The translations under genes were made by a program, and so were the position numbers. Under the pieces are notes generated by a model. That model ran no database searches. It had not been told where the DNA came from and worked only from the letters and a program-made list of their open reading frames with translations. From Methanoregulaceae archaeon (GTDB taxonomy: Archaea > Halobacteriota > Methanomicrobia > Methanomicrobiales > Methanospirillaceae), in the NCBI GenBank assembly GCA_035505975.1, contig DATJQJ010000021.1, positions 1 to 35,418 on the forward strand: 35,418 bases of DNA. The letters are read 5' to 3'. Numbering within the stretch: position 1 is the first letter of the stretch; the number at the start of each line of letters is the position of its first letter. Of the stretch, positions 2 to 23,120 are shown in pieces.

Positions 2-457
2 ATTCCGAACATAAATTGCTATGTTGGAATGCAAACCGGGAGTGTTGTTACCTGGTCAACAGCGCCATATGGAGCAGGAACAGGGATTAACGCAACTAAT
101 ACAAACTTAATGGATCCATTCGGTAAAGCATCTAGCAGCTATTATCAATCGATCATGTGGTTCGGAAATTACACGCTCAGAGAAGGTGTGGACTTATTTG
201 CCCTGCCCTATGGATCGGATGATGGTCAAGCAATAGGAGGAAAAGCAGGATCTGCGGCAACTAGCGGATATAATGGTCAGGTACCATATGCATATGTAGC
301 CGGAAAGTTTGCGAATGGTCAGTGTGATCCCACTTCAGCTGTACTTGGTACCGGATGGGAACAGCTCCGCCCCGGTGATACTGTAAATGTAAAAGTCATT
401 TATACACCTACTGGAGCAGCTATTTTCAGCAAGGACATTGCGGTCACGGAGGCATAA
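2..457 (+). CDS. Pilin-like secreted protein, 5'-truncated by the window edge. Probable paralogue of the next gene; both share a C-terminal 'PGDT..V' region.
   Basis: The frame is open from the window edge; the first in-frame Met is at 29. It is Gly/Ser/Thr/Asn-rich like the downstream pilin. The stop TAA at 455-457 lies 4 nt before the next gene's ATG. Confidence 0.45.
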   Translation: MPNINCYVGMQTGSVVTWSTAPYGAGTGINATNTNLMDPFGKASSSYYQSIMWFGNYTLREGVDLFALPYGSDDGQAIGGKAGSAATSGYNGQVPYAYVAGKFANGQCDPTSAVLGTGWEQLRPGDTVNVKVIYTPTGAAIFSKDIAVTEA

Positions 458-461
458 GATC

Positions 462-1094
462 ATGAAACAGAATAGCGAACATGCAGTTTCACCTGTTGTT
501 GGTGTAATGCTCATGCTGGTTGTCACCATTATTATCGCTGCAGTCGTCAGCGGGTTTGCCGGAGGCCTTATAAAAGGTCAGGCAAAGGCACCTCAAGCTA
601 CCATCCAAGGCAAATTCAGTGTTACATCAGGCTTACAAATCATCCATGCCGGAGGCGATGCAATTCCAACCTCTGGTATTGAGATCTCAACCACATGCGG
701 ACCAACTTTTGGCTCTAATTTAGAACTTATGACAGCAAATGTGGTCAATTTGTCAACCGTTACAAATTCGGCAGGAACACCTGTACTTTATATTAATCCC
801 ACCACCGGTATGCCTGATGGGTATAACATTACCTCGTTCAATCCCGGTGACACCTTATATGTAAGTATAGCGAACTGTGCCCCCGCGATTTTACAGCCAA
901 CAGTAGTGGCTCTCGGTGGGGGGTCGGTTTATGCATTCGATGGTACTCACTGGACATATAGTGGACAAAAAGGCCAATACTGGGGTCTGAACTTTGTTAA
1001 TCCCAATAACGTCGGAAAGCAGTTCTACCTTGATGTTCATGACAAAGCAAGCGGAGCATTGATTTCACGTTCAGTTGTAACGATCACCGGATAG
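462..1094 (+). CDS. Archaeal type IV pilin-like protein with a class III signal peptide (DUF361/archaeal pilin N-terminal domain).
   Basis: The N-terminus 'MKQNSEHAVSPVVGVMLMLVVTIIIAAVVSGFAGG' has the canonical archaeal prepilin pattern: a short charged leader, AVSPV.G, then a hydrophobic helix. The ATG is at 462 (internal to the track ORF 438..1094). The rest is a Ser/Thr/Gly/Asn-rich mature domain. Confidence 0.75.
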   Translation: MKQNSEHAVSPVVGVMLMLVVTIIIAAVVSGFAGGLIKGQAKAPQATIQGKFSVTSGLQIIHAGGDAIPTSGIEISTTCGPTFGSNLELMTANVVNLSTVTNSAGTPVLYINPTTGMPDGYNITSFNPGDTLYVSIANCAPAILQPTVVALGGGSVYAFDGTHWTYSGQKGQYWGLNFVNPNNVGKQFYLDVHDKASGALISRSVVTITG

Positions 1095-1534: not shown

Positions 1535-2392
1535 ATGATCGACATCGACACAATCGACTGGAACGAGGCCTGGAAGGAGGTTGATCGGCGCAAACGTGCC
1601 GATGACGCACTGGCCAACTGCACGGACCGCTGGAACGATCCGGAACGGTGCAGGAAGTTTAACCAGCGGATCCAGGACGAAAACTGGAAACATTCCTGGG
1701 ATCGGATCCATGCAATGCAGGTGACATCGGGATCGCGGGTCCTCGATATCGGCGCTGGTCCCGGAACACTTGCGGTCCCCCTCTCCGGGATCGTCAGGCA
1801 CGTCACTGCGGTCGAACCCTCCCCGGGGATGCTCGAATGCCTCCATGGTCATATTCAGGAGCGGCAGATCAGGAATATCACGACGGTTCAGAAAAAATGG
1901 GAGGACATAGACCCGGACAGCGACCTCAAGGCACCTTACGACGTGGTGGTCGCATCATACTCGCTCGGGGTCCCTGACCTCCGGGATGCCCTGGAGAAGA
2001 TCGATTTAGTCTCTTCGAAATATGCGTACATTTTCTGGTTTGCCGACATGATGTCGCCCCGTCTCCAGAATTACCTCGAAATATGGGAGGATCTCTTCGG
2101 GAAACCTCCTCTCCCGCGGTATTCCTCGAATATTATATTTAACCTTCTCACCCAGATGGGGATTTATGCGAATGTGGAGGTTACCCGGACGGATCATACC
2201 ACCCGATTTTCCAGCGTGGAGGATGCGGTGTCCAGCCAGCGTAACGAGTTGGATCTTAAGGATGACCGACAGGTGTCCGTGCTCAGGGCTTACCTCGAAA
2301 AAACCCTGATACACGACAACGGGGATTACATCCTGAAACGGCAGTCATACCAGGCAAAGATCTGGTGGGACAAGGAAATTCAGCCGGCCTGA
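1535..2392 (+). CDS. Class I SAM-dependent methyltransferase, paralogue 1 of a three-member lineage-specific family (MT1).
   Basis: Motif I 'VLDIGAGPGTLAVPL' is followed by 'VTAVEPSPGM'. Later motifs are 'KKWEDI', 'VVVASYSLGV' and 'YAYIFWF'. The C-terminus has 'QMGIYANVEV' and 'AKIWW'. The N-terminus is Trp-rich (WNEAWKE...WNDPE). The same motif order occurs in the ORFs at 8410 and 11635(-). Confidence 0.85.
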   Translation: MIDIDTIDWNEAWKEVDRRKRADDALANCTDRWNDPERCRKFNQRIQDENWKHSWDRIHAMQVTSGSRVLDIGAGPGTLAVPLSGIVRHVTAVEPSPGMLECLHGHIQERQIRNITTVQKKWEDIDPDSDLKAPYDVVVASYSLGVPDLRDALEKIDLVSSKYAYIFWFADMMSPRLQNYLEIWEDLFGKPPLPRYSSNIIFNLLTQMGIYANVEVTRTDHTTRFSSVEDAVSSQRNELDLKDDRQVSVLRAYLEKTLIHDNGDYILKRQSYQAKIWWDKEIQPA

Positions 2393-2408: not shown

Positions 2409-3323
2409 ATGCCTATCAATAACGTCTCACAAACCCTTCCCGGCTCGATCCTTGAAGAAACAGTTCAGCAGGTCAGGGACGAACTGGGCGCCGGTTTTGA
2501 CAGAATCCTCATCGAGCGGGTGGTAATCGGGATATTTTTCATCGGCGTCAAGCTCAGCGACGGTTCGGCAGGGATCTGCGCCACCCCGATCAAGGAGATC
2601 CCGGAAGCCGTCTGCTGCCCGAGCTCGGCACGTGCCATGCCCTACCCCGGAATGTTCAGAGGACGCAGGGCGGGGGATTTCCTCAGGGACCTGCCTTCCC
2701 AGCCGCCCCTGAAAAAGGCGATCGGGATCGCGATCCTTAACGCATTCTCGGCATCGATCATCAGGTCCCGGCTTACAACAGAGTATATCGTCGAAGTCGG
2801 CCCCGATGCCCTCGATCTGATTGAGTTCCCGGAGGATGCATACGTGGTAGTTGTGGGAGCACTTGTGCCGGTCCTGAAAAGGCTGGTTGCACGGGGAAAA
2901 ACATTCGGGATCCTTGAACTTGACAGGCGGACCCTGAAAGAGAACGAACTGCAGTTCTGGGTCCCACAGGAGAATTCCAGCGACGCGATCGTTAAGGCGG
3001 ATATGATCATCATAACTGGTACGACATTGTTGAACAACACCCTCGAACCTCTCCTGGGTCTTGCACACCCCGGTGCGAGGATAATTGTTGTCGGACCTAC
3101 GGCCGGCATGATTCCGGATGCATTCTTCCGGCGGGGTGTAACCATGCTCGGCGGGGATATTGTTACCAATGCCGACCTGCTGCTTGATACGCTTGCCGAG
3201 GGAGGATCGGGGTACCACTTTTTCGGGAAATCCGTAGAAAAGATCTGCATCACGCGGGTTGGAGCCCGGGAATTTATTAATGAGCATTTGCCTGCCAGCA
3301 CCGGAGGCAGGTCCTGCCTATAA
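2409..3323 (+). CDS. DUF4213/DUF364-type Rossmann-like protein (annotated in that family as 'putative heavy-metal chelation'), co-transcribed with MT1.
   Basis: It starts 17 nt after the MT1 stop. 'YVVVVGALVPVLKRLVARGKTFGILELD' and 'ADMIIITGTTLLNNTLEPLL...ARIIVVGPTAG' are typical of the DUF364 Rossmann-like C-domain. The N-terminal half resembles DUF4213. Confidence 0.55.
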   Translation: MPINNVSQTLPGSILEETVQQVRDELGAGFDRILIERVVIGIFFIGVKLSDGSAGICATPIKEIPEAVCCPSSARAMPYPGMFRGRRAGDFLRDLPSQPPLKKAIGIAILNAFSASIIRSRLTTEYIVEVGPDALDLIEFPEDAYVVVVGALVPVLKRLVARGKTFGILELDRRTLKENELQFWVPQENSSDAIVKADMIIITGTTLLNNTLEPLLGLAHPGARIIVVGPTAGMIPDAFFRRGVTMLGGDIVTNADLLLDTLAEGGSGYHFFGKSVEKICITRVGAREFINEHLPASTGGRSCL

Positions 3324-3546: not shown

Positions 3547-4135
3547 CTACAGTTGCATTACCGGCTGTCCCCATATTGCTTCTCCTTCATGGACAGCAGG
3601 AGTGAGGTATACTCCCTCCGGTTTGAGAAAACAGGGAGGGTGCATTGAAAAGACAAAAATTCCTCCATGTATGAGCAGATCGGCAATCGCTCTGAATAAC
3701 GTTCTGATATCTGCGATATCCATGGCCGCCATGTTTGCCACTGCCTTATCGAAGGGCCTCTCCCGTTTCAGCTCAAGGACCCGGCTATAGTCCGTGGCAT
3801 CATAGGTATGAAATGAAATGCTGCCTGAATAGGCGGCCCGCCGCCGCCTGGCATGGACAACCAGTTTTTCACAATATCAAACGCAACAACTCGTGCCTCC
3901 AATTCAGCAAGCCGCTGAGAAAAATTGCCGGTACCACACGCGGTATCAAGGACAAGGTCCCCTTTCTGGATTGCGAGCATCTCTTCGGTATGCGGACGGA
4001 CAACCCTGCTGTGAAACGAGTTGGATTCATCTCCCATCGGCATCCCGGTAATCGGCATTGGTATCCCAGCGGCGCCTGCTCTCATTGGTTGTCTCCCTGA
4101 AATCATCCATTATAATCCCTGCACCCATGATATCC
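3547..4135 (-). pseudogene. UbiE/Methyltransf_11-like SAM methyltransferase, disrupted by at least two frameshifts.
   Basis: Three overlapping minus-strand ORFs in different frames carry successive pieces of one methyltransferase. Frame a (4027..4365) has 'IMDDFRETTNESRRRWDTNADY'. Frame b (3768..4106) has 'EEMLAIQKGDLVLDTACGTGNFSQRLAE...AFDIVKN'. Frame c (hand-translated near 3850, then 3547..3741) has 'VVHARRRRAAY...YDATDY...FDKAVANMAAMDIADIRTLFRAIADLLIHGGIFVFS'. One frameshift lies in a GC run 'GGCGGCGGCGGGCCGCC' at about 3838-3856. Confidence 0.5.
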
Positions 4136-4396
4136 ACACCTGGATTGCGCTCTGCATTCCCCCGTTGTATTCTCCTGAAACAATATGTAATCCCGGACCT
4201 TAAACGCTGTATACCAGCCGGTTCCCCGAACTCGATCCCTTGCTTCCGGCATACTCTCCAGACCTGGGATGGTTTGGAGACAGGGAAACAGGTTATCAAT
4301 GATTTGAGGAGATTTTTCAGATGTTTTCCGTTCACAGTCCGTATCCACTGCCGGGCAATTGACATGCCGGCACACCTGAACGGGTCCTTCGAACAT
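4103..4396 (-). CDS. Hypothetical small Cys-containing protein. It could instead be the remnant N-terminal extension of the methyltransferase pseudogene.
   Basis: It has an ATG start at 4396, facing the AT-rich divergent promoter region. It contains 'CRHVNCPAVDTDC'. I recognise no family. It overlaps the start of the frameshifted methyltransferase. Confidence 0.2.
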   Translation of the reverse strand: MFEGPVQVCRHVNCPAVDTDCERKTSEKSPQIIDNLFPCLQTIPGLESMPEARDRVRGTGWYTAFKVRDYILFQENTTGECRAQSRCGYHGCRDYNG

Positions 4397-4551
4397 TGGC
4401 AGGACGAAAATGAGGAGTATTATGTAATTAGTTAATATTTTAAAAAAGTAAAATATAAAATATTACCAACAAAGGCAGCACTACTGCCCACTCGTCCCGA
4501 CAAGGGCTGGGGTGAGCGAAGTGCCAAATCCAGGAGAAGAGTGTATCGCGC
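4397..4551. promoter_or_regulatory. AT-rich divergent intergenic region with TATA-box-like elements. It would serve the radical SAM gene (+) and the 4396 ORF (-).
   Basis: 'TTAATATTTTAAAAAAGTAAAATATAAAATATTACC' at about 4431-4466 is strongly AT-rich in a GC-rich genome. 'AAATATAAAATATT' resembles an archaeal TATA box, and an AGGAG lies 16 nt before the ATG at 4552. Confidence 0.35.
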
Positions 4552-6252
4552 ATGGAATGCAGTTATTGTGAACGGGCCTGCGAGATCCCGGAAGAAACGA
4601 ACGGGCACTGCCGGATGTACCGCAACGAAAAGGGAAAGATCACGGAAAATTATCCGGATGCCTATCTCAATATCTACCCTGTTTCGAGCGAATCCATACC
4701 GATGCTTCATTTTTACCCGAACAGTATCTTCCTGCTCATCAGCACTATCGGGTGCAATTTTTCCTGTGAAGGCTGTATATCTGAATTCCAGACCACCCGG
4801 CCCGGCACGCTGCAGGAAGTCCTTACCCCCTACACACCGGAAGAGATCCTTGCCATTGCACGGGAAGGCGGGTGCAAGGGTATAACGTTCTGCCTGAATG
4901 AACCCACCGTCTCTCTTCCCACGTTCCTTAGGGTGGCGCAAGTGGCAAAGGGAGAAGGTCTCCTTGTCGGGTGCTCCAGTAATGGATATATGACTCCGGA
5001 AACCCTGCAGGCCATGATTCCGTACCTGGACTTTATCAATATCGGTCTTAAGGGATCAACCGACGGGCGATACAAGGAATGCGGGGCAAAATCGGCCGGC
5101 CCGGTCTACCGTAACGTAAAATCCCTGTACGATGCCGGCGTTGCCGTTGAAGTCTCTGTCATGTATATTAACGGGAGGGAATCAGAGGTGACAGGGGCAT
5201 CAGACCGCATCAGGAAAATATCACCGGCGATCCCGTTCCAGGTGATGCGATTTGTGGCGACCCATGAGAACCTCAAAGGATCCGAACCCGACAGGGAGCA
5301 GGGCGAACACCTCTGCACAGAACTGCGAAAATACCTTGATCACGTGTACCTGTTTAATACGCCGGCAACAACGGAACTCGACTCCCGGTGCCCGGTTTGC
5401 GGGGAAACCATTCTTCACCGGGTTTTTTTCGGGCCCATGGCAGCGAGGGTTCTCTCCTGCCGGACCGAAGGGATATGCAGTTGCGGGTACAGATTTCCCT
5501 GCCGGGGTGAGATAGAACCAATCCCAAAAACCGGCCCCCGTCTCCTCGGTGGATACAAGTCGGTTATGGGTGCCCGGTATATTGTGGATCTTCTCACATT
5601 TCTCGGGGTTAAGGATGACCTGGAGATCGACCGGATCTGCAATACAGTGATCGCCAGCGGTTATCTTCGCGAGCTCCAGGACAAGGAGGACTCGGTTGAG
5701 ACGTTCACCGGCATGCTCCGGTATATTGCGGGGCTTGCCCAGCGTGAAGAGGCAGCAGAACGGATCACAGACTACGTGCAGTCGGTTTTCAATGACATAG
5801 GAAACCGGGCAGCTGACGCAGAAAAACCCAGGGTCTATGTGGTCTTCTGCCACCCGCTTTTTCCGGTTTATGCAGCCAAGTTCGTGAACAGCCTTGTCGA
5901 GACGGCTGGAGGAACCAGCGTAAACAGGGAGCAGGACTTCAGGGAGAGTGCAGATGCAGAATATTCCGTTCAAGCACTCAACCAACTCGACCCGGAGGTT
6001 ATTCTCGTCACAGGCCCTTCTGTTCCGTCTCTCGGTGAATTCCTTGATACATGCAAAGAACTGGGAATAACCTGCAGAGGAATCTCTGAACACAGGGTAT
6101 ATCTCACGGAAGGCATGCACGCGACGGGATCTCTTGGATGGATCATCAGTCTCATGGATGTCGCAAACATCCTGCATCCTGAGATCTTCCATTATTCCCT
6201 CGCTGAAGAAAAAGAGAAACTTGATAGGGCAGTGACCAGGTTTATGGGATAA
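4552..6252 (+). CDS. Radical SAM enzyme (COG1180 / PflA-like, AmmeMemoRadiSam-type core) with a Cys-rich linker and a C-terminal BtuF/FepB-like periplasmic-binding-protein (PBP) fold domain. No signal peptide.
   Basis: The N-terminus 'CSYCERAC...GHC' and 'PMLHFYPNSIFLLISTIGCNFSCEGCIS' match the COG1180 pattern (CxxC..C..GxC, then the CxxxCxxC cluster at aa 68-75). The linker 'CPVCGETILH...SCRTEGICSCGYRFPC' has six Cys. The C-terminal ~230 aa ('PRVYVVFCHPLFPVYAAKFVNSLVETAGGTSV', 'LNQLDPEVILVTGPS', '...ANILHPEIF') look like a type-III PBP. Confidence 0.8.
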   Translation: MECSYCERACEIPEETNGHCRMYRNEKGKITENYPDAYLNIYPVSSESIPMLHFYPNSIFLLISTIGCNFSCEGCISEFQTTRPGTLQEVLTPYTPEEILAIAREGGCKGITFCLNEPTVSLPTFLRVAQVAKGEGLLVGCSSNGYMTPETLQAMIPYLDFINIGLKGSTDGRYKECGAKSAGPVYRNVKSLYDAGVAVEVSVMYINGRESEVTGASDRIRKISPAIPFQVMRFVATHENLKGSEPDREQGEHLCTELRKYLDHVYLFNTPATTELDSRCPVCGETILHRVFFGPMAARVLSCRTEGICSCGYRFPCRGEIEPIPKTGPRLLGGYKSVMGARYIVDLLTFLGVKDDLEIDRICNTVIASGYLRELQDKEDSVETFTGMLRYIAGLAQREEAAERITDYVQSVFNDIGNRAADAEKPRVYVVFCHPLFPVYAAKFVNSLVETAGGTSVNREQDFRESADAEYSVQALNQLDPEVILVTGPSVPSLGEFLDTCKELGITCRGISEHRVYLTEGMHATGSLGWIISLMDVANILHPEIFHYSLAEEKEKLDRAVTRFMG

Positions 6253-6515: not shown

Positions 6516-8360
6516 ATGGATTTCTTTACTCTGTTGTTGTCGGTCATACTCGTAATAATCGTTTTATGGCTGATACTGAAGGGATTGGTCCTGATTCATG
6601 CAAATGAAGTAGGCGTCGTCACCAGGAAGATGTTCGGACCCACGCTGCCTCAGGGCAAGATCATCGCGACCAAAGGAGAGGTCGGCGTTCAGGCCGATAT
6701 CCTGATGCCCGGGCTCTATTTCTATATTCCGATCCTATGGAGAGTTGACCGTGAGAGCGTCACTAAGATAACACCAGACCACATTGGCATCGTCTCCTCC
6801 ATTGACGGCCTGCCTATGAAGCCTGGTCGGTTGCTTGCTGATGAAGTGCAGAGCAACTCGTTCCAGGACGCAGGTATGTTTCTTGAGAACGGCGGGTTTA
6901 AAGGTCCGCAGATTGCAATCCTAAAGCCCGGGACCTATCGTATCAATACCCGTCTCTTTGCTGTCATCGAGAAACCGATTATCGCAGTACCACAGGGGAA
7001 AGTAGGGATCGTCACCGCTCTTGACGGTATCCCGCTTCCATCACGGTTTGCCATTGCTCCCGCACCCCTCGAAGATCACAGTCATTTCCAGAACGGGCAG
7101 GTATTCATCGTGAGCCAGGGGTACCGCGGTACTCAGCTCGAGACGTTGCAACCCGGGGATTACTATATCAACCCGCTCCTGTTTGAAGTTACACCGGTCG
7201 ATATGACCATCGTCCCGCCCGGTAATGTCGCAGTAATCATATCAAGTGTCGGGGAAGAACTTGAAAAATCCCCTGATCGAGCCCCTAAAATATCGAATCC
7301 TCCCAATCTCGACCAGCCCGTGCATGAAGATGCCGAGAAGCTCCTGATCACCGATAAGACAAAAAGAGGAATACTCAGGGATCCTGTTGCACCCGGTAAG
7401 TACAACCTGAATACGGCCGCATACAGGGCAGAAATTGTGCCAACCAGTGCCGTTACGATCGACTGGGCAAGCGAGGACGGGACAAAAGAGACCCTAAAGT
7501 ACGTCAAGGAAAACAAGGACAATAACCCGAACGTAGCGGAATTCTTTAAGTTCGGACAACTACGGGTCACCTCCCAGGACGGGTTCCAGCTCGAGGTGGA
7601 TGTACGACTTATCGTCCGGATCCCGGCGGACGACGCTCCGTTCGTCATCGCCCGGTTCGGGAGCGTCTACAACCTGATCGAACAGGTAGCACACCCGTTG
7701 ATCGATGCATCATTCAGGAACGAGGCCGGGAATCAGCAGGCGTTACAGTTCGTCCACGACCGGACGAAACTGCAACAGACAGCATTCGAGAGGGCGCAGG
7801 AAGAGTTCGAGAAATACCACGTCGAAGTCCAGGGACTCCTGATTGCCTATATTAAGGTCGACGAAGCCTTGTTGAAGACGCAGACCCTGAAACAGATTGC
7901 CGTCCAGCAGCAGCAGCAGTACCAGCAGGAGGCGAAGGCGCAGGAGGAACGGATCGCCGTCACCGAGAAGACAGCCCGGGCCGATATGCAGGGGCAGGTC
8001 ATCGCCGCAAAATTATCGATCGACATCAACAAAGACAATGCACAGGCTGCCCGTGAATCTGCATACGGCACTCGTGACGCAACAAAAGCGAATGCAGACG
8101 GATCTGCGTATGCGAACGAGCAGATCGGTATCGGCACCGCCAAGGCATATATCGCGCAGAAAGAGGCCCTTGGTGCTGAAAACGTAGCGATGCTGCAGGC
8201 AATCCAGAAGATCGCGGACGGGAAGATCGTTATCACCCCGAATGTACTTGTGACGGGAGAGGGTTCGCAGGGAGGTAATCTCCTGACTGCATATTTTGCT
8301 ACATTACTCGAACAGACCAAACGGCAGGCTACGGCAATCTCGCAGAAAACCCCGGAATAA
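6516..8360 (+). CDS. Flotillin-like SPFH (band 7) domain protein with an N-terminal transmembrane anchor and a Gln/Ala-rich coiled-coil tail.
   Basis: GGAGG lies 5 nt upstream of the ATG. The N-terminal transmembrane helix is 'FFTLLLSVILVIIVLWLILKGLVLI'. A long SPFH-like region is followed by a 'QQQQQYQQEAKAQEERIAVTEKTARADMQGQ' coiled coil typical of flotillin/FloT-YqiK proteins. Confidence 0.8.
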   Translation: MDFFTLLLSVILVIIVLWLILKGLVLIHANEVGVVTRKMFGPTLPQGKIIATKGEVGVQADILMPGLYFYIPILWRVDRESVTKITPDHIGIVSSIDGLPMKPGRLLADEVQSNSFQDAGMFLENGGFKGPQIAILKPGTYRINTRLFAVIEKPIIAVPQGKVGIVTALDGIPLPSRFAIAPAPLEDHSHFQNGQVFIVSQGYRGTQLETLQPGDYYINPLLFEVTPVDMTIVPPGNVAVIISSVGEELEKSPDRAPKISNPPNLDQPVHEDAEKLLITDKTKRGILRDPVAPGKYNLNTAAYRAEIVPTSAVTIDWASEDGTKETLKYVKENKDNNPNVAEFFKFGQLRVTSQDGFQLEVDVRLIVRIPADDAPFVIARFGSVYNLIEQVAHPLIDASFRNEAGNQQALQFVHDRTKLQQTAFERAQEEFEKYHVEVQGLLIAYIKVDEALLKTQTLKQIAVQQQQQYQQEAKAQEERIAVTEKTARADMQGQVIAAKLSIDINKDNAQAARESAYGTRDATKANADGSAYANEQIGIGTAKAYIAQKEALGAENVAMLQAIQKIADGKIVITPNVLVTGEGSQGGNLLTAYFATLLEQTKRQATAISQKTPE

Positions 8361-8409
8361 AGCCGGGGTTTCACCGGTCCGATTTAACAATTACCATGAT
8401 AGGATAACT

Positions 8410-9351
8410 ATGAACCCCACAACTCCAATAATTACTTCAGGATCAGATATTTCCGGATTCTCCAGCCTCCCGGGTACGTTCTGGCGAGAACGATGGAAAG
8501 AGCAGCGGCTTGCCCTGCTCGAAACCCGGAAATCCGAAGGTACAAGTTTCTGGAACGATAAAAAATCTGTAAAAAATCATTTTATCCGGGATCTTGACGA
8601 ATGGAGGGACCATGCCGAAGCCCGGATTGCAGGCATGCAGATCAGGGACGGCTCGCGTGTGCTGGATATCGGCGCAGGTACCGGCACCTTAAGTGTCCCT
8701 CTCGCGGCACACGGGTGCGATGTGACCGCTGTCGAACCGTCGCCGGCGATGGGTGAAATACTAAAGGAATACCAGCAGGAACAAAAGGCCCGGGAAATTA
8801 CCGTGATCCCAAAACGGTGGGAAGATGTCACACTCGAGGAACTGGGGGAACCGTTCGATGCCGTCATCGCTTCCTATAGCCTCATGGTCACCGATATTGG
8901 CGAGGCAGTTGCAAAGATGCATCGTTCCTGCAGGGGAACCGCCCATATTTTCTGGTTCCTGACCCAGCCGTTATGGGCCCAGGTCAATGCCGGCGTCTGG
9001 AAGGAGTTGTACGGAACGGAATTCTGCGGCGAACCGACCGCCGATATCCTGTGGTCGGCACTGTATGAAATGGGGATCTACGCAAATCTTTTAGTTGAAC
9101 CCGGTTGCGATCCGATGATATATCCATTAGTTGAAGATGCCGTGAAGGAGTTTCACGGTCGCATGAACTGCACGACTGATGGGCAGGACGCGATACTCAG
9201 GGACTATTTCACGAGGACCCTTGCAAAGTCCGATAAAGGATATTACGTGAACGGGCAGGCGCTCGGGGCCCATATATGGTGGAATGCCGGTGAGCAGCAG
9301 GGATTCAAGTTCAACGATACATCCGTGGAGTCTACGATAGTCACCGAGTGA
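8410..9351 (+). CDS. Class I SAM-dependent methyltransferase, paralogue 2 (MT2).
   Basis: It shows 'VLDIGAGTGTLSVPL...VTAVEPSPAM', 'KRWEDV', 'AVIASYSLMV', 'TAHIFWF', 'EMGIYANLLVE' and 'AHIWW'. The ATG at 8410 (Met39 of track ORF 8296..9351) lies 50 nt after the flotillin stop and aligns with the N-termini of MT1 and MT3. Confidence 0.85.
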   Translation: MNPTTPIITSGSDISGFSSLPGTFWRERWKEQRLALLETRKSEGTSFWNDKKSVKNHFIRDLDEWRDHAEARIAGMQIRDGSRVLDIGAGTGTLSVPLAAHGCDVTAVEPSPAMGEILKEYQQEQKAREITVIPKRWEDVTLEELGEPFDAVIASYSLMVTDIGEAVAKMHRSCRGTAHIFWFLTQPLWAQVNAGVWKELYGTEFCGEPTADILWSALYEMGIYANLLVEPGCDPMIYPLVEDAVKEFHGRMNCTTDGQDAILRDYFTRTLAKSDKGYYVNGQALGAHIWWNAGEQQGFKFNDTSVESTIVTE

Positions 9352-10245
9352 TTCTTTCAACAAGCTGGCTATCATTTTGAGATCTTTACGGGATACTTTC
9401 TTCAATACAGCCCTGATGAGATGGACGTGGCACATTTGCCGGGAGGAACCATGGAATGAGCGTTCTACGGCTTTCCGGATACCTTTGTGACCATCTGAAA
9501 CAACCATATTGACATCGCGAAGCCCGCGATCTTTCAGGCCTTGAACAGGTCCTCCCAGGTTAGCTCATCCTCACAATCTGCGATCCTGGCACCAAGAATC
9601 TCTCATATTCCATCTTCCCGAACTCCGGCACTTACAAGCAGAGCTGTGTTAGAATACTTTATTCCATCCCTTATTTTGAAATATGACACATTTAAAAAAG
9701 AGATAAGGAATGTGAGATTCAATAGGTCTGGAGAGAAATTCAATAACCTTAGAATCCAGTTCTTTAGCAACGCTGGAAACAAATAAGGCTGATATCTTCT
9801 CAATACCGAGATGCGAGATTACATCCTCAATCTTCCTCGTTGAGATTCCCTGTAGGTACGATTCAATGATGGCATTCTCAAGTGCCTTTTCGATCCGTGA
9901 GTATCTTTCAAAAATCCGTGTCTTGAAGGAGATATCCCGCAATAATGGGTTTCAAGGTTTAATGGGCCATATCGCGATTTCAGAGTACGGCATCTGGTAT
10001 CATTGCGATACTTCCGTCTTGTCCCGGTCCTTTCATATTTAGCTGCCCCGACCTGTTCCAAGGCTTCTTTCTGCATCACCTCGTTCAAAAACCAGGTGAT
10101 CAGATTCTTCATTCCATCTTCATTATCGGTAAGGTAATGTGCTACCAGGTCTTTACTATTCATGCCCTGTTCCTTCCTTTTTCTGCAATCTAAGGTGGAT
10201 ACAGGGCGTCTTCAATTTTACAGCTTTATACGCACACTACCTTCA
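9336..10245 (-). mobile_element. IS256-family (Mutator-type) transposase remnant: at least two frameshifts, and the 3' end is truncated at the MT2 stop codon.
   Basis: Three minus-strand ORFs in different frames match successive segments of an IS256 transposase. 10163..9819 carries 'LNEVMQKEALEQVGAAKYERTGTRRKYRNDTRCRTLKSRYGPLNLE'. 9942..9649 carries 'FERYSRIEKALENAIIESYLQGISTRKIEDVISHLGIEKISALFVSSVAKELD...YLFFKCVIF'. 9507..~9336 carries 'VVSDGHKGIRKAVERSF...CHVHLIRAVLKKVSRKD'. Roughly 110 C-terminal aa are missing. Confidence 0.75.
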
Positions 10246-10434: not shown

Positions 10435-10530
10435 TTCAAACCAGGGACATTCTCTGGTTTGAATTTATCATTAGCCGAATTTGCACAAATATTATATAGC
10501 CTGATTACTCATTAGCGGTTGGTGAAAACA
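10435..10530 (+). promoter_or_regulatory. Putative promoter and operator of the mop gene: a perfect 10-bp inverted repeat upstream of a TATA-like box.
   Basis: The inverted repeat is TTCAAACCAG-N9-CTGGTTTGAA at about 10435-10463. 'AAATATTATATA' lies at about 10488-10499, ~32 nt upstream of the ATG at 10531. GGTGA lies 5-9 nt before the ATG. Confidence 0.3.
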
Positions 10531-10740
10531 ATGGAGATTAGTGCACGAAACAAGATCAAGGGAACCGTCAAGATGATCAAGAAAGGTCCGGTCAGCACGG
10601 AGGTAGTCATTACCATAGCGGGCGGGAATGAGATCGTCTCATCCATAACGACCTACTCGGCAGAGAAAATGAAATTGAAGGAGGGTTCGCCCGTGTATGC
10701 GGTGATGAAGGCCTCCGAGGTAATGGTCGGGATTGACTGA
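10531..10740 (+). CDS. mop: Mop/TOBE-domain molybdate- or tungstate-binding protein (molbindin).
   Basis: At 69 aa, 'MEISARNKIKGTVKMIKKGPVSTEVVITIAGGNEIVSSITTYSAEKMKLKEGSPVYAVMKASEVMV' matches the mono-Mop TOBE pattern (SARN.L.G.V.....G....V.......I.S.IT..S...L.L..G..V.A.IKA..VM). Confidence 0.8.
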   Translation: MEISARNKIKGTVKMIKKGPVSTEVVITIAGGNEIVSSITTYSAEKMKLKEGSPVYAVMKASEVMVGID

Positions 10741-11074: not shown

Positions 11075-11638
11075 TTACACACTCACAATCTTATAATACG
11101 AACCATTTGCACAATTTTTACACTTCACACTACCCTCCCTGCTGACTTCACGATGATCGAGAATCTGTTCACCGCAGACACTGCAAATTTCCTTATGCAG
11201 GGGAAAACCGGGAATATCATCCTCCGATAGATCGACCGTCACATTTTCAATTTTGAGTATTTCGTCCTCGGGTATACCAGACAGGAGGGCCAAAACTTCA
11301 CTCCTGTCCAGTTTATCGTGCTCCTCACGGTTTTTCTCATGGATCGATACCCGTACTGCCTTCCGTGTTTCCAAATCCAAAAATGTAGCGGCAAATTTCC
11401 CGTAATCCCTGAACTTGAGGGTTCTGTGGCCAAGCGAGCACCCGGTAATTGCCTGAACAGCATCCGTCCCGCAGCGATCGATTTCAAGATATACGACAAG
11501 GTTGTTGTTGTGGACATGTGGGTTCATTCCCAGTTCCCGGAGGCCTGCAATTGTCATCCGGGTCCCAAGAACGATCCCCGGACAGACATGCCCATGGAAT
11601 TCCCTTGCCTTATTAAAGAGAACACTATAATCGCTCAT
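11075..11638 (-). CDS. FmdE-family protein (formylmethanofuran dehydrogenase subunit E-like domain) with a C-terminal zinc-ribbon.
   Basis: It carries the FmdE signature 'FHGHVCPGIVLGTRM'. The C-terminus 'CSVCGEQI...CKNC' is a CxxC...CxxC ribbon. Its ATG at 11638 overlaps the stop of MT3 (ATGA). Confidence 0.8.
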   Translation of the reverse strand: MSDYSVLFNKAREFHGHVCPGIVLGTRMTIAGLRELGMNPHVHNNNLVVYLEIDRCGTDAVQAITGCSLGHRTLKFRDYGKFAATFLDLETRKAVRVSIHEKNREEHDKLDRSEVLALLSGIPEDEILKIENVTVDLSEDDIPGFPLHKEICSVCGEQILDHREVSREGSVKCKNCANGSYYKIVSV

Positions 11639-12504
11639 TCCTGGTTCACCCCCGGAATCCCCTGATGTTTCGTTGTCCACCAGATATGTGCCCCGAGGAC
11701 TTCATCTCCAAGCACCAGCCCGTCACCCTCCTGTCTCAACATCGCATGGAGGTAATTTTTCACCGTTGTTTCCTGCAGAGGAGTAGTGCAGTTCAAACGC
11801 TGGATATACTCAGACATGGCATCATCGAACGTAGGGTAGAATGTGCGTGAGGATTTGGTTTCCACCTCAAGGTTTGCATAAATTCCCATCTCGATGAGCA
11901 CCTGCCAGAGCCAGTCAGCCAGGGGTTCTCCCGGGAACTCCCCGCCATGCAGCAGGGGCCATAAATCCATGTTCACCTTCGCCCAAGTCGGTGGAGTAAG
12001 GAACCAGAATAGGTGTATGCTCCCCCTGCAAAAGGTCTCCATCTTCGCTATCGCCTCTGCGATGTCCATCATGGTCAACGAGTAGGACGCTATAACGGTA
12101 TCATAGTGCTCGTCCCCCAGTTCTTCCGGTTTCACGTCCTCCCATCGTTTTGGAATTACGGTAATACCAGCGATATTTTCCTTCGCTATCCGTTCATTAA
12201 GCGCCTCCCTCATCACGGGTGAAGGTTCAACTACTGTAACCTGACATCCTTTCAGTGCAAGCGGGATTGCGAATGTCCCTGGTCCTGCACCGATGTCGAG
12301 GACAAGGGAATGTTCCGGAACATCCATCGTATCAAGACGCGCCTCCCACTGGTGCCGGTTATTCTCTCTTCCCTTCATGAAAACATTCTGGACATGTTTT
12401 TTATTGTTCCAGAACTCTTTTGAATTGCCATAGTTTGGGACGGCACAATGGGCGAGTTTCAGTTGCCGCCATTGTTCCCGCCACGATCCCGCTGTGGGTC
12501 TCAT
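11635..12504 (-). CDS. Class I SAM-dependent methyltransferase, paralogue 3 (MT3).
   Basis: It shows 'VLDIGAGPGTFAIPL...VTVVEPSPVM', 'KRWEDV', 'TVIASYSLTM', 'SIHLFWF', 'EMGIYANLEVE' and 'AHIWW'. The ATG at 12504 is preceded by a very AT-rich promoter region at 12505-12700. Confidence 0.85.
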   Translation of the reverse strand: MRPTAGSWREQWRQLKLAHCAVPNYGNSKEFWNNKKHVQNVFMKGRENNRHQWEARLDTMDVPEHSLVLDIGAGPGTFAIPLALKGCQVTVVEPSPVMREALNERIAKENIAGITVIPKRWEDVKPEELGDEHYDTVIASYSLTMMDIAEAIAKMETFCRGSIHLFWFLTPPTWAKVNMDLWPLLHGGEFPGEPLADWLWQVLIEMGIYANLEVETKSSRTFYPTFDDAMSEYIQRLNCTTPLQETTVKNYLHAMLRQEGDGLVLGDEVLGAHIWWTTKHQGIPGVNQE

Positions 12505-18684: not shown

Positions 18685-19932
18685 TTATACCCAGCCGCGG
18701 AGTTTCATCGCTTTCACGACACGGCTCACGGCAATGGTGTATGCAGCCTGGCGGATCGTGACGTTGTGGTCATTTGCGAGTTTCCTCACGTCATGGTAAC
18801 ATGACACCATCTTTGTTTCGAGTCTCCGGTGGATCTCTTTTGCGTCCCAATGGTCGATATTGAAGTTCTGGACCATCTCGTAGTACGAAACGACAACACC
18901 CCCGGCATTGCAAAGAAAATCAGGAATAACCGGTATTTGATGCTGGAAAAGGATTCTCTCGGCATCCTTCGTCATGGGCCCGTTTGCAAACTCCGCAATC
19001 ATTTTTGCACGGATGCGACCGGCGTTGTTCGTGGTGATGACGTTTTCAAGGGCTGCCGGAATGAGGATATCGGTCTCGAGCTCCAGGAGTTCAGCATTGG
19101 TTATCTCTGCAGAACCTGGAAATCCTTTCAGGGAGCCTGTCGTTTCCTTGTATCTCATCACATCACCGATTGAAAGCCCATCCCTGTTCAATATCCCGCC
19201 CTGGCTGTCGCTGACGGCAATAACGCGGACACCATACTCCTGGCTGCCGATCAGGGCGGCATTCCCCCCGACATTGCCGAACCCCTGGATGACAACGGAT
19301 GCATCCTTAAGTGGCACTCCGAAATCTTTCGATGCCTCTGAGACCACGTACCATCCGCCCCGGGCCGTCGCATCGTCCCGGCCTTCGGATCCGCCAAGGC
19401 TGACGGGTTTCCCAGTAATGACGCCAAAGGTCGTCTTCCCTGCTATCCTCGAGTATTCGTCCATCATCCATGCCATGATCTGCTGGTTTGTATAGACATC
19501 GGGGGCGAGAACGTCCTTGTCAGGCCCGATAAACTGATGAATCGCCTGTATATACGATCTGCTCAGCCGTTCCAGTTCTCCCTTCGACATTTCCTTCGGG
19601 TTGCATACCACACCACCCTTCGCCCCGCCGAGAGGCAGGTTATGTATCGCACATTTCCACGTCATCAGGCTCGCAAGCCCGCGGATGGTATCGATGGTCT
19701 CATCAGGGTGAAACCGGACGCCCCCTTTTGTCGGACCCAGCGCGTCGTTATAATGAACGCGGAAGCCGGGGAAAACGTTAAGGCGACCGTTATCCATCCT
19801 GACCGGCACCGAGACGTGAAGTTCCCTTACCGGTAATTTGAGACTTGTTTCAATATCGGGGGTCAGGTCCAGGTCTGAAGAACAGGTACATATGTGTTCT
19901 TTCACCATCTCGAAGAGGTTTGGTTCGTTCAT
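18685..19932 (-). CDS. gdhA: Glutamate dehydrogenase (Glu/Leu/Phe/Val dehydrogenase family).
   Basis: It has the catalytic motif 'PLGGAKGGVVCNPKEMS' and the dinucleotide-binding 'IQGFGNVGGNAALI'. The ATG at 19932 (MNEPNLFEMVKEH) is 16 nt after the korB stop. Confidence 0.9.
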   Translation of the reverse strand: MNEPNLFEMVKEHICTCSSDLDLTPDIETSLKLPVRELHVSVPVRMDNGRLNVFPGFRVHYNDALGPTKGGVRFHPDETIDTIRGLASLMTWKCAIHNLPLGGAKGGVVCNPKEMSKGELERLSRSYIQAIHQFIGPDKDVLAPDVYTNQQIMAWMMDEYSRIAGKTTFGVITGKPVSLGGSEGRDDATARGGWYVVSEASKDFGVPLKDASVVIQGFGNVGGNAALIGSQEYGVRVIAVSDSQGGILNRDGLSIGDVMRYKETTGSLKGFPGSAEITNAELLELETDILIPAALENVITTNNAGRIRAKMIAEFANGPMTKDAERILFQHQIPVIPDFLCNAGGVVVSYYEMVQNFNIDHWDAKEIHRRLETKMVSCYHDVRKLANDHNVTIRQAAYTIAVSRVVKAMKLRGWV

Positions 19933-19948
19933 GGTTGTATTCCGTGTT

Positions 19949-20800
19949 TCAGGTCTTTTCATCAAGTATCCTGCGAATTGCGTCCATTTTATCGGGTACA
20001 TGGCCATGACGTGTCAGGATCCGTTCTTCGAATGTCGGAGCTGACTTTTGGAAGAAGATGCCGAGGCCGATCCCCGAGTCAGTGTTGTAATCCCATTCCC
20101 GGGCTTTTTCGCATGCATCGTTGAAATTCGAAGTATCATGGTCCCCGAGTTCGTATACATGGGAATTATAGTAATCGGTCATGTTGTTGTACGTCGCACA
20201 TATCTGGAGGACATCGACGAATGAAAATCCGTGGTGGGCGACTGCGTCCGAAACCAGCATCTTCAGCTGGTCCGGCCTTCTGGTATACCCCCGGGCGATG
20301 AACGTAGCCCCGCTCGAAAGCATGATCTCCAGGGGATTGAAGGGAAGTTCAACAGTCCCGGCGGGCGTCGATTTCCCCCTGAAACCCAGGGGGGAGGTTG
20401 GTGTATACTGCCCTGTCGTCAGGCCATAGACACGGTTGTTGTGAACGAGGACGGTAATGCCGATATTCCGTTTCGCTGCAAATATCAGGTGATCGAGTCC
20501 TTCTGCATAACAGTCGCCATCGCCTGCACAGCATATGACCTCAAGATCAGGGTTTGCAAGCTTGATCCCGGTTGCAGCAGGGATTGTCCGCCCATGGAGA
20601 GAGTAAAAACTGTTGATGTTTAAGTAGTCTGCCATCTTCGCATGGCACCCGATTCCCGTGACAAGGACCACATCGTCAAGCGATCGCCCCTCCTTTTTGA
20701 GTCCTTCGAGCAGGGCCTTTAAGGTAAACTGGAGGGAGAAGTTACCGCATCCCGGACACCAGGTATTCTGTGCCGGCGTGATCAGGTTCCCTTCTGTCAT
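19949..20800 (-). CDS. 2-oxoacid:ferredoxin oxidoreductase, β (TPP-binding) subunit.
   Basis: 'WCPGCGNFS', 'GIGCH' and 'VICCAGDGDCYAEGLDHLIFAAKRNIGITVLVHNNRVYGLTTGQ' form the TPP-binding fold of OFOR β subunits. It overlaps the α gene by 4 nt. Confidence 0.85.
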   Translation of the reverse strand: MTEGNLITPAQNTWCPGCGNFSLQFTLKALLEGLKKEGRSLDDVVLVTGIGCHAKMADYLNINSFYSLHGRTIPAATGIKLANPDLEVICCAGDGDCYAEGLDHLIFAAKRNIGITVLVHNNRVYGLTTGQYTPTSPLGFRGKSTPAGTVELPFNPLEIMLSSGATFIARGYTRRPDQLKMLVSDAVAHHGFSFVDVLQICATYNNMTDYYNSHVYELGDHDTSNFNDACEKAREWDYNTDSGIGLGIFFQKSAPTFEERILTRHGHVPDKMDAIRRILDEKT

Positions 20801-22452: not shown

Positions 22453-22619
22453 ACCTAATTGCCCCGATATCACGATGATAACCCGTAACGATTAAATAAG
22501 TTCCTCTGATCGGGCGAAAAAAAACCTGCTGAACACGTCATCCGATTCTTTATCCTGAAGATGTCAGAATTAAAAAAAATACCTGATACCGTCAAGCATG
22601 CACGATTCCTGTCGTTGAG

Positions 22620-23120
22620 TTATAAATTCCTGATAAGCGATGGCAGTACGTCGTCAAGCTTTGCTTTTATCGGCATCGGGTTATGGACCGCATTGATGGC
22701 AATTTTTTCTGCAGGGAACCCGATTAAATTGCTGATTTCCGTGTAATGCTCCCCGAAGATGATCACGACCATGGCGGCCGAGGAAAGAGCCTGAATAGTT
22801 GCCGCGTACGTGACTCCCGCGTCGTTATGGATGAATGCGAAACAGTACCTGAAGTCACGCTTCTTCTCTGCCAGTTCTGCGATACAGCGGTCGATATCGA
22901 TTACTTCCCCGATATAATGCCGGTCAGGATCGGACACTTCGATGTTCGTCCTCGCCGCCCGGTTGCCGGCCACCACAGATATTACCCCGAGCTTGCGCAG
23001 TTTGTTGATCAGGTACAACGCAGAACCCGTCTGGACCGGGACCTGAGGGCAGCCGAGAAGGACCAGGGCTGCAGGGTTCCCGCTAATACGTGTATCTGTC
23101 ACTTCGTTCACTCCTGACAT
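22620..23120 (-). CDS. Conserved hypothetical protein, possibly the methanogen DUF1890 family.
   Basis: A 166-aa ORF with 'ALVLLGCPQVPVQTGSALYLINKLRKLGV'. The family name is recalled from memory only. Confidence 0.45.
   Translation of the reverse strand: MSGVNEVTDTRISGNPAALVLLGCPQVPVQTGSALYLINKLRKLGVISVVAGNRAARTNIEVSDPDRHYIGEVIDIDRCIAELAEKKRDFRYCFAFIHNDAGVTYAATIQALSSAAMVVIIFGEHYTEISNLIGFPAEKIAINAVHNPMPIKAKLDDVLPSLIRNL

Follow-up and report, generated by a model that had tools for sequence, protein, structure and literature searches.

Radical-SAM (rSAM) enzymes usually recruit their substrates through SPASM, RRE, B12 or TIM-barrel extensions. Among the families closest to the protein described here are the AmmeMemoRadiSam (TIGR04337) and PFL-activating COG1180 proteins, which resemble its catalytic half but are devoid of its 245-aa C-terminal extension. 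The class B and Mmp10-type cobalamin-dependent methylases also combine an rSAM core with an accessory cofactor or ligand domain, and here, too, there is a methylation context nearby; in our family, however, no B12-binding domain or cobalamin riboswitch was detected in the protein and loci searched, and the methyltransferases are separate. In ChuW/HutW operons (chuT-W-X-Y-U-V type) an rSAM enzyme gene lies between Peripla_BP_2 and FecCD/ABC importer genes. This layout is similar to that of our loci, and methyl transfer features in both systems, but ChuW is a HemN-like class C rSAM methyltransferase without a lobe of a solute-binding protein (SBP), whereas the present enzyme is PFL-AE-like, has a separate methyltransferase and is associated with Moco riboswitches. 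The class III, or cluster A-II, SBPs (Peripla_BP_2: 4hn9, IsdE, CeuE, PhuT/ShuT, MolA, BtuF) have an N-lobe, a signal peptide and a lipobox, all of which our protein lacks; its binding module is cytoplasmic, attached to an enzyme and under the Pfam gathering threshold. MoeA-PBP_like (PF12727) sets a precedent in that a Mo-cofactor enzyme of the cytoplasm carries a binding-protein-derived molybdate domain, although this domain is complete, belongs to a different SBP class (ModA-like type II fold) and has a different catalytic partner. In MolABC (HI1470-72), a type II molybdate/tungstate importer, MolA is a complete periplasmic SBP, and we know of no rSAM or methyltransferase partners described for this system.

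Here, we analysed a stretch of 35,418 nucleotides (the window) from a Methanoregulaceae archaeon, the forward strand of which carries at 4552-6252 a complete ORF with an ATG start, encoding 566 aa. The protein is 100% identical to one Methanoregulaceae MAG protein, and its full-length homologs share 36-78% identity with it. The preliminary description had read it as an intracellular rSAM enzyme with a covalently attached module of class III (cobalamin/siderophore-type) binding-protein origin, and our results support this. The ORF and all the motifs quoted for it can be read directly from the translation, and full-length homologs across lineages indicate a real conserved fusion and not a mis-call. 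As had been claimed, the protein lacks a signal peptide, its N-terminus being hydrophilic and rich in cysteines (mean Kyte-Doolittle value of -1.09 over the first 25 aa). Neither an export signal nor a lipobox was found, and the Kyte-Doolittle profile contains no hydrophobic segment anywhere in the 566 aa; the most hydrophobic 19-mer (1.46) is an rSAM beta-strand at aa 59-77. A missed export signal, or a separate exported binding protein, is ruled out by the hydrophilic N-terminus, the uninterrupted ORF and the full-length homologs at 79 loci. As judged from sequence, the protein is a soluble, cytoplasmic rSAM enzyme with an SBP lobe; its family, found in strict anaerobes, is widely conserved yet uncharacterised.

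Residues 1-316 form a PFL-activase/AmmeMemoRadiSam-like rSAM core with a Cys4 knuckle on either side. Pfam Radical_SAM (PF04055) matches aa 63-207 (E 1.8e-14, 54.7 bits against a cut-off of 29.5), and the partial TIM-barrel core spans aa ~59-270 (4726-5361, forward strand), so that both the partial or full (beta/alpha) barrel and the cluster motif of the superfamily are present. The latter, C68-x3-C72-x2-C75 (aa 68-75, nt 4753-4776), is invariant in 25 of 25 homologs, and a P50-x-L-H-F-x-P-x-S58 segment is also found in the translation. The N-terminal knuckle (C3-x2-C6-x3-C10 ... G18-x-C20; 4558-4611, forward) has four cysteines, each conserved to 90% or more across 25 homologs, and is presumably a Zn or auxiliary Fe-S site. 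The rSAM module is closed by a second, zinc-ribbon-like Cys4 element (C280-x2-C283 ... C309-x-C311; 5389-5484, forward), whose four cysteines are invariant in the 25 homologs and whose first Cys pair also occurs in a stand-alone D. toluolica paralog. Both elements are within the stretch aligned to NCBIfam AmmeMemoSam_rS (TIGR04337), aa 1-316 against model positions 12-330 of 349, which scores 93.9 bits and thus remains under the curated cut-off of 220. No AMMECR1 or Memo genes were found among the Pfam-scanned ORFs of the window or the top annotated neighbour clusters of 79 loci, and no glycyl-radical enzyme among annotated neighbours. The models of glycyl-radical enzyme activases, TIGR02493 and TIGR02494, give only 21-24 bits against cut-offs of 174-232, and the similarity to TIGR04317 ('tungsten cofactor oxidoreductase radical SAM maturase') is weak, 26.5 bits, far under the cut-off of 380. 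Pfam detected no B12-binding domain (PF02310-type or an Mmp10/TsrM-type equivalent) in the fusion protein.

The claim of a periplasmic-binding-protein (PBP) fold in the C-terminal half is correct as to homology with class III SBPs, but it holds for the backbone helix and the C-lobe only. As a single sequence, aa 380-489 match Peripla_BP_2 (PF01497) with 21.2 bits, below the gathering threshold of 27.5, while a PF01497 hit is precomputed for many homologs and a family profile matches solved SBPs at E 2e-15. All these SBP alignments are restricted to the interdomain helix and the C-lobe (profile positions ~55-250 corresponding to SBP residues ~120-340), which rules out a complete BtuF-like two-lobe fold; the arrangement typical of SBPs, in which one long helix connects two Rossmann-like lobes, is not found. 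In place of the missing N-lobe there is a family-specific helical linker, aa 322-396 (5515-5739, forward), with an invariant G333-G334-Y335. Residues 322-396 are modelled by AF2 as helices only, with no N-lobe beta-sheet, and profile positions 1-55 match fused-family proteins only, never stand-alone SBPs. Since the N-lobe is missing, the fusion protein contains half a PBP. The backbone helix (aa 399-420) and the C-lobe (aa ~425-566) are encoded at 5746-6249 (forward) and include the invariant residues C501, W530 and H542. The 'ILHPEIF' sequence, described earlier as terminal, is present, but at aa 540-546, 20 residues short of the end, and this motif is common to the 4hn9-like SBP subfamily. 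In type, the lobe is that of the class III (4hn9/IsdE/BtuF) binding proteins. Its structural neighbours bind haem (IsdE, PhuT, ShuT, HutB), siderophores, Ni and B12, and also include MolA; therefore, the fold does not identify the ligand.

Full-length homologs occur in Methanomicrobiales, Methanococcus, Methanosarcinales, ANME-1, Desulfobacterota, Geobacter, Holophaga, Spirochaetota and Firmicutes, including clostridia. The commonest neighbours of the fusion gene at 79 loci are FecCD-type ABC importers with their binding proteins and class I SAM methyltransferases. Within +-6 kb, genes for an ABC ATPase were found at 48 of these loci, Peripla_BP_2 at 45, a 218-aa methyltransferase at 39, FecCD at 37 and a 280-aa methyltransferase at 18, and in 38 of the 79 a methyltransferase gene is the immediate same-strand neighbour. 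The order in M. burtonii is PBP - methyltransferase - fusion gene - FecCD - ABC ATPase; in M. maripaludis this set is supplemented by a further PBP gene following the fusion gene, and in D. toluolica the methyltransferase is directly upstream of the fusion gene, with the PBP-FecCD-ABC set a few genes away. The extracellular SBPs coupled to the fusion gene belong to the same subfamily as its half-PBP. In one 856-aa homolog (P0026) the 280-aa methyltransferase is fused at the C-terminus. A 387-aa protein encoded after the stand-alone rSAM paralog of D. toluolica was considered as a detached PBP half and rejected (hhalign probability 0.1, no similarity).

The copy in the window is a member of a Methanomicrobiales paralog clade that lies mostly outside transporter operons, and no transporter genes were found within the window. 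Surrounding genes in this clade encode 280-aa-type methyltransferases, DUF364, FmdE and a Mop-like TOBE protein, all of which can be seen here. Upstream of the fusion gene, on the same strand, are a 280-aa-type methyltransferase gene (MTB paralog 1, 1535-2392; same family as the domain fused in P0026) and a DUF4213/DUF364 gene (2409-3323; Pfam 144 bits). Paralog 2 (8296-9351, forward; true start probably near 8410) is 55% identical to the P0026 domain, and the single-TOBE-domain, Mop/molbindin-like protein of 73 aa is encoded at 10519-10740 (forward; Pfam TOBE 66.2 bits). On the reverse strand, paralog 3 (11635-12504) is followed by a gene for an FmdE-domain and zf-dskA_traR protein of the Mo/W formylmethanofuran dehydrogenase subunit-E family (11075-11680; Pfam FmdE 114 bits); an MTB-FmdE pair is also found in locus L006. 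PDB searches with the 280-aa methyltransferase and DUF364 returned generic or uncharacterised matches only. As the preliminary description stated, the fusion gene is divergent from a frameshifted methyltransferase: the class I SAM methyltransferase pseudogene (3547-4106, reverse) has Pfam methyltransferase hits on its N-terminal fragment, and a homolog aligns in frame -2 at 4016-3906 and then in frame -1 at 3792-3625. No Rfam family matched the 445-bp intergenic region between them (4107-4551). The fusion gene had also been called the largest of this island, but the nearby Band7 gene (6516-8360, 614 aa) is larger.

The gene neighbours and riboswitches of the family point to molybdenum/tungsten handling and away from vitamin B12. 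The Moco/Tuco riboswitch RF01055 was found at 8 of 30 bacterial loci, all in three bacterial lineages (Geobacteraceae, Desulfosporosinus and one spirochaete). Six of these loci have it 0.6-2.3 kb upstream in the same orientation, at the head of units of the type PBP - fusion gene or small rSAM - fusion gene. In a Desulfosporosinus locus (L084) two MoeA genes lie just upstream, and the gene directly upstream of the riboswitch-controlled unit is of the MoeA-PBP_like (PF12727) type. Homologs of ModA are near the fusion gene in 7-9 loci, those tested being over the TIGR01256 cut-off, XdhC in 4 and MoeA in 3. Mop-like TOBE homologs lie no more than 8 kb from the fusion gene in 12 other loci (13 with the window), and in the clade of the window copy TOBE, ModA, XdhC or MoeA was found within 8 kb in 12 of 17 loci. 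Of 87 loci, 16 (~18%) have a DUF364 homolog close to the fusion gene, and FmdE homologs likewise occur in 16. At many loci, for example those of M. burtonii and M. maripaludis, there is no explicit Mo/W marker. In M. maripaludis, DUF364 is located in a modABC operon for which cofitness with nifH is reported (bioRxiv 10.1101/2024.03.05.583561).

On this basis we tentatively favour, with somewhat less than even confidence, an rSAM and methyltransferase module that acts on a Mo/W-related small-molecule ligand and feeds or tailors Mo/W cofactor supply. The rSAM barrel would stand in for the lost N-lobe, and the ligand pocket would therefore lie between the C-lobe and the SAM/cluster site, and not between two lobes as in genuine SBPs. 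An imported Mo/W chelate, a thio-species or a pterin-type intermediate might be held in this pocket and would be attacked by the 5'-deoxyadenosyl radical, while the partner methyltransferase would methylate the substrate or the product; the net outcome would be that Mo/W cofactor supply is fed or tailored. The RF01055 riboswitches and the recurrent ModA, TOBE, MoeA, XdhC, FmdE and DUF364 neighbours argue for this interpretation. However, the TonB-dependent receptors found in 6 loci and the CobN/ChlID genes of two Geobacter loci would likewise be consistent with a cargo of the tetrapyrrole or siderophore type, and the window copy has no transporter in the window.

An unlikely alternative is biosynthesis of a secreted Mo/W metallophore, in which the fusion protein, the methyltransferases, DUF364 and BioB/HmdB-like rSAM enzymes would build a chelator that is re-imported by TonB/ABC systems, the half-PBP binding the product or a late intermediate. 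Tailoring-type enzymes (a second, BioB/HmdB-like rSAM, O-methyltransferases, DUF364) and uptake genes do occur together under one metal-cofactor riboswitch, which recalls siderophore clusters under Fur. The sole DUF364 enzyme characterised so far converts a SAM derivative by cyclisation into an azetidine amino acid (PMC12930334), a chemistry that may be related to nicotianamine-type chelators. Nevertheless, we found no recurrent exporter or obvious scaffold-forming enzyme, many loci comprise nothing beyond a methyltransferase, the fusion gene and importer genes, and DUF364 is confined to less than a fifth of the loci.

Maturation or tailoring of the molybdopterin/tungstopterin cofactor itself, with the half-PBP binding the pterin-dithiolene cofactor or its precursor in a manner akin to the tungsten oxidoreductase rSAM maturases, seems improbable. 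It would agree with Moco riboswitch control, with MoeA, XdhC (the Moco chaperone family) and FmdE as neighbours, and with the proposal, made in the DUF364 structure paper, that the DUF364 substrate is a pterin or flavin derivative (PMC2954201). The similarity to TIGR04317 is in line with it as well, but far under the cut-off, and the dominant coupling to FecCD importers and same-subfamily extracellular SBPs would be left unexplained.

Equally doubtful, in our opinion, is a role in iron release, in which an imported haem, tetrapyrrole or siderophore would be degraded anaerobically, by analogy with the ChuW/HutW step and with the half-PBP holding the chelate. The order PBP - (methyltransferase) - rSAM - FecCD - ABC resembles haem-uptake operons, the haem binders IsdE, PhuT, ShuT and HutB are among the C-lobe matches, TonB-dependent receptors are present in the loci mentioned above, and ferritin and ZIP genes lie near the M. 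maripaludis copy. In two Geobacter loci CobN-like and ChlI/D-like genes, which are related to the HmuS haem dechelatase, adjoin the unit. Against this, the readable regulation consists of Moco/Tuco riboswitches with no iron signal, the recurrent non-transport neighbours are Mo/W genes, and the core is PFL-AE/AmmeMemoRadiSam-like and not HemN-like as in ChuW. The CobN/ChlID genes occur in only 2 of 87 loci, upstream of the riboswitch, and were set aside as a tetrapyrrole clue. The second option of the preliminary description, an enzyme acting on a bound ligand, is compatible with these data in its general form, as a ligand of the metal-chelate type, but the context favours Mo/W over a corrinoid or iron.

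The simplest reading offered earlier, a non-canonical cobalamin-dependent rSAM methylase in which the corrinoid of a BtuF-like module would pass the methyl group of SAM on to a radical intermediate, is very improbable and unsupported because Moco/Tuco riboswitches (8/30 bacterial loci) and Mo/W neighbours are present while a search of the window and 32 loci detected no cobalamin riboswitch (0/30 bacterial loci), and it is also countered by the absence of a B12-binding Pfam domain, by the single SBP lobe (BtuF holds B12 between two), by BtuF being among the weakest SBP matches, and by the class I methyltransferases being conserved separate partners, adjacent in most loci and fused in P0026.

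Use of half an SBP as the intracellular substrate receptor of an rSAM enzyme appears to be undescribed so far. Our literature search, which covered the fusion itself, Peripla_BP_2, BtuF or FecCD together with radical SAM, and the Moco riboswitch together with radical SAM, found no paper on the fusion family, and the fusion gene is absent from the main text of an M. maripaludis Mo-source transcriptome paper and of an RB-TnSeq preprint. In sulfidic habitats, the Mo and W that anaerobes acquire are thiolated or complexed; M. maripaludis grows on tetrathiomolybdate (PMC11484787). The fusion family with its methyltransferase partners, carried by M. maripaludis and Geobacter, is a concrete and genetically tractable candidate for a part in such acquisition. 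It spans methanogens, ANME, sulfate reducers, Geobacter and clostridia, with some bacterial operons under Moco/Tuco riboswitch off-control, and a Mo/W role would place the DUF364, FmdE-like and Mop-like genes in context, as well as the methyltransferase expansions of Methanomicrobiales. It is possible, though we consider it doubtful, that an unrecognised route of Mo/W acquisition exists in strict anaerobes, methanogens among them, in which a Mo- or W-bearing complex imported by a FecCD-type ABC system would be received in the cytoplasm by the rSAM enzyme with its SBP lobe as receptor, radical and methylation chemistry would break up or convert the complex and free the metal for Moco/Tuco synthesis, and Moco/Tuco riboswitches would provide feedback in bacteria. 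The cargo of such a route might be a 'molybdophore/tungstophore' or a thio-metalate adduct, and the receptor lobe would be that of the transporter's own binding protein.

The fusion gene (window 4552..6252, + strand) begins with ATG and comprises 566 codons in the window ORF list. In the translation we could read the N-terminal features claimed in the preliminary description, namely the cysteine knuckle C3-x2-C6-x3-C10 with G18-H-C20, the 'PxLHFxPxS' segment (P50-M-L-H-F-Y-P-N-S58) and the CxxxCxxC motif at aa 68-75 (C68-N-F-S-C72-E-G-C75). ILHPEIF, described as terminal, is present but lies at aa 540-546, 20 residues before the end. Radical_SAM (Pfam) matches aa 63-207 (E 1.8e-14), while aa 1-316 cover nearly the entire NCBIfam model of AmmeMemoRadiSam-type radical-SAM proteins, although the score of 93.9 bits falls short of the cut-off (220). 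Further downstream, the single sequence matches Peripla_BP_2 (Pfam) at aa 380-489 below threshold (21.2 vs 27.5 bits), and IsdE and BtuF (NCBIfam) weakly at aa 380-488. The N-terminus is hydrophilic (mean Kyte-Doolittle value of residues 1-25, -1.09), the most hydrophobic 19-mer is a strand of the barrel, and no hydrophobic segment was found anywhere in the protein by the Kyte-Doolittle scan. Thus, the fusion protein is cytoplasmic; no export signal had been overlooked when the protein was described as lacking a signal peptide.

The C-terminal module is half a periplasmic binding protein (PBP). We aligned 25 full-length homologs and made a separate profile from the final ~245 residues. Searched against the PDB, this profile found class III solute-binding proteins (SBPs), with 4hn9 at E 2.3e-15, further 4pag, IsdE 2q8p, 4ovk, Lmo2184 and CeuE, and BtuF weakly (~5e-3). 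However, in every comparison, whether with PDB chains, 100 stand-alone binding proteins of the fetched loci or 1.84 billion representatives, profile positions ~55-250 paired solely with binding-protein residues ~120-340, i.e., the second half of an SBP with its long interdomain helix and C-lobe. For positions ~1-55 (aa 322-376), every match was a protein of the fused family. The AlphaFold2 model built from the alignment is confident (pLDDT 86, pTM 0.84) and contains only helices at aa 336-396, where the N-lobe β-sheet is absent. The homology to SBPs claimed previously is therefore real, but partial, since the interdomain helix and C-lobe alone align; the complete fold did not hold. The AGG..N and LHPE motifs also occur in 4hn9-like SBPs and, judging from the alignment to PDB chains, are an inheritance from that subfamily. 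The stand-alone relatives nearest to the fused C-lobe (P0143, P0148 and P0156 in the large protein search) are exported proteins of 650-1020 aa with two to four tandem complete 4hn9-like SBPs.

The fusion is conserved across lineages. An identical protein is encoded in a Methanoregulaceae MAG. Methanoregula and Methanospirillum have full-length relatives (565-600 aa) with 56-78% identity, and more distant ones, likewise full-length (36-44% identity), were found in archaea (Methanoculleus, Methanolinea, Methanococcus maripaludis, Methanococcoides, Methanohalophilus, ANME-1, Methanolliviera) and bacteria (Desulfobacula, Syntrophobacteraceae, Geobacter, Desulfomicrobium, Holophaga, Spirochaetota, Desulfosporosinus, Clostridium). 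The family is small: clustering at 50% leaves ~15-20 full-length clusters. The window copy belongs to a Methanomicrobiales paralog clade which is mostly detached from the transporter. In this clade and the transporter-linked one alike, the three cluster cysteines, C280, C283, C309, C311, G333/G334/Y335, C501 and H542 are invariant among the 25 homologs, G333-G334-Y335 and C501 being specific to the fused family; ≥90% of the sequences retain W530 and the knuckle cysteines C3, C6, C10 and C20. The C-lobe loop motifs differ, with 'GKPG' and 'WDFGSPRW' in the transporter-linked clade and 'ES.(D/N)AEY' and '(Y/H)A(T/S)G..GW' in the window clade (25 homologs), which suggests that the ligands of the two clades are related, not identical. 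The radical-SAM half also exists alone: in D. toluolica (L004 4210-6420), a second FecCD operon, which includes a 280-aa methyltransferase, contains a 348-aa paralog of it (36% identity), and the next gene encodes a 387-aa protein without detectable family.

The fusion gene is coupled to methyltransferases and FecCD importers. In M. burtonii the order is Peripla_BP_2, a 218-aa UbiE-like methyltransferase, the fusion gene, FecCD permease and ABC ATPase; M. maripaludis has the same set plus a second Peripla_BP_2 after the fusion gene. D. toluolica carries a methyltransferase directly upstream and a Peripla_BP_2 - FecCD - ABC set a few genes off, and in Holophaga two such sets precede the gene. 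When all ORFs within ±6 kb were clustered for 79 loci, the recurrent neighbours were ABC ATPase (48/79), Peripla_BP_2 (45), the 218-aa methyltransferase (39), FecCD (37), the 280-aa methyltransferase (18), DUF364 (11), FmdE (10), NTPase_1 (9), ModA and a ModB-like permease (7 each) and TonB-dependent receptors (6). The adjoining SBPs and the fused lobe share a subfamily (50-77 bits). Since the immediate same-strand neighbour is a methyltransferase in 38 of the 79 loci, the 856-aa homolog P0026 carries a 280-aa methyltransferase at its C-terminus (55%, 48% and 34% identical to the three window paralogs) and importer genes are close by, we conclude that a class I methyltransferase and the radical-SAM/half-PBP enzyme together form the core module, which usually lies in an operon for a type II ABC importer.

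The gene is also associated with Moco riboswitches and Mo/W genes. The Moco/Tuco riboswitch RF01055 was detected by Rfam in 8 of 30 bacterial loci. In four Geobacteraceae loci it heads one or two Peripla_BP_2 genes and then the fusion gene; in two Desulfosporosinus loci the unit it heads is a small BioB/HmdB-like radical-SAM gene and then the fusion gene. PBP - rSAM - FecCD - ABC operons are headed by a second riboswitch copy in L082 (Desulfosporosinus) and by the spirochaete copy. In L079, also Desulfosporosinus, the riboswitch lies just after the fusion gene, before an O-methyltransferase, IclR and another AmmeMemoRadiSam-like rSAM gene. Six of nine instances are on the same strand and ≤2.3 kb upstream of the fusion gene, a placement which serves as an internal control against chance. 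The P3 hairpin is present in the Desulfosporosinus riboswitches and missing from the Geobacter and spirochaete ones; Regulski et al. tentatively link P3-less variants to the tungsten cofactor (PMC2408646). ModA homologs occur near the fusion gene in 7-9 loci (5/5 tested exceed the TIGR01256 cut-off), small Mop-like TOBE proteins in 13, XdhC in 4 and MoeA in 3, and the Holophaga locus has a TOBE-type ABC ATPase and CobW nearby. In L084 (Desulfosporosinus) two MoeA genes lie directly upstream, one fused to a PBP_like domain. In M. maripaludis, DUF364 lies within a modABC operon, and this operon is cofit with nifH (bioRxiv 10.1101/2024.03.05.583561); the only DUF364 enzyme characterised so far uses a methylated SAM, which it cyclises (PMC12930334). 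In the Desulfosporosinus loci (L084 2785-5984; also L082 and L079), one or two Moco riboswitches are surrounded by MoeA, the MoeA-PBP_like fusion, extra AmmeMemoRadiSam-like rSAM paralogs and several BioB/HmdB-like radical-SAM genes; this looks like a more extensive Mo/W gene cluster with multiple rSAM genes. In two Geobacter loci, CobN-like and ChlI/ChlD-like AAA+VWA genes (L038 99-6306; L043 429-7241) stand immediately upstream of the riboswitch heading the PBP - fusion gene unit; the CobN-like protein matches CobN 7c6o (E 2.6e-167), and the haem dechelatase HmuS is also related.

Our favoured, still tentative reading is that the enzyme and methylation together convert a Mo/W-related small molecule for Moco/Tuco supply. 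The radical-SAM barrel would stand in for the lost N-lobe, so that the SAM site and the C-lobe clamp the substrate between them; this substrate may be imported (a chelate or thio-species) or a pterin intermediate, which radical chemistry and methylation would convert. It is unlikely that the enzyme instead makes a Mo/W-metallophore, and still less likely that it tailors the cofactor. We are equally doubtful that haem or a siderophore is broken down for iron; the analogous operon layout, TonB receptors, structural similarity to haem SBPs and CobN/ChlID neighbours in two loci support this reading, but regulation contradicts it. The cobalamin-dependent methylase preferred originally is highly improbable, as Rfam detected cobalamin riboswitches in none of the sequences scanned (the window, two archaeal and 30 bacterial loci), against eight bacterial loci with RF01055. 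We found no paper describing the fused family, annotated at source just as 'radical SAM protein' or 'pyruvate-formate lyase-activating enzyme'; the fusion is a new architectural variant in the radical-SAM superfamily, and its link to Mo/W, which is new and testable, is purely contextual.

The window copy is ringed by 280-aa methyltransferases, at 1535-2392 (+), 8296-9351 (+) and 11635-12504 (-). The listed TTG start of the second overlaps the end of an unrelated 614-aa Band7/SPFH gene (6516-8360, +); its actual start is probably the ATG near 8410 ('MNPTTP'), because homologs align only from residue ~57. The divergent methyltransferase at 3547-4106 (-), previously called frameshifted, is indeed a pseudogene, with a frameshift between ~3906 and 3792 and more in-frame stops downstream of 3547. 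Also nearby are DUF4213/DUF364 (2409-3323, +), an FmdE-domain gene (11075-11680, -) and a single-TOBE-domain, Mop/molbindin-like gene of 73 aa (10519-10740, +; 66 bits), below the 150-aa ORF filter; 12 other loci likewise have close homologs of it near the fusion gene. TOBE, ModA, XdhC or MoeA lies ≤8 kb away in 12/17 loci of the window clade. A decayed insertion sequence (~9355-10163, -) separates the TOBE gene from a methyltransferase gene, its transposase remnant consisting of three consecutive IS256/Mutator fragments (Transposase_mut positions 18-79, 84-169 and 228-278). An archaeal type IV pilin gene (Pilin_N) lies at 438-1094 (+); such genes repeatedly flank Methanomicrobiales methyltransferase/rSAM islands (the window and loci L005, L006 and L021), with no evident functional link. 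The rest of the window (e.g., 18685-22473, 22620-23120 and 25324-25962, all -) holds ordinary archaeal housekeeping genes, among them those for glutamate dehydrogenase, 2-oxoacid:ferredoxin oxidoreductase subunits, DUF1890, DUF2284, RadA, an aminotransferase and a PLP-dependent decarboxylase (Orn/DAP/Arg family).
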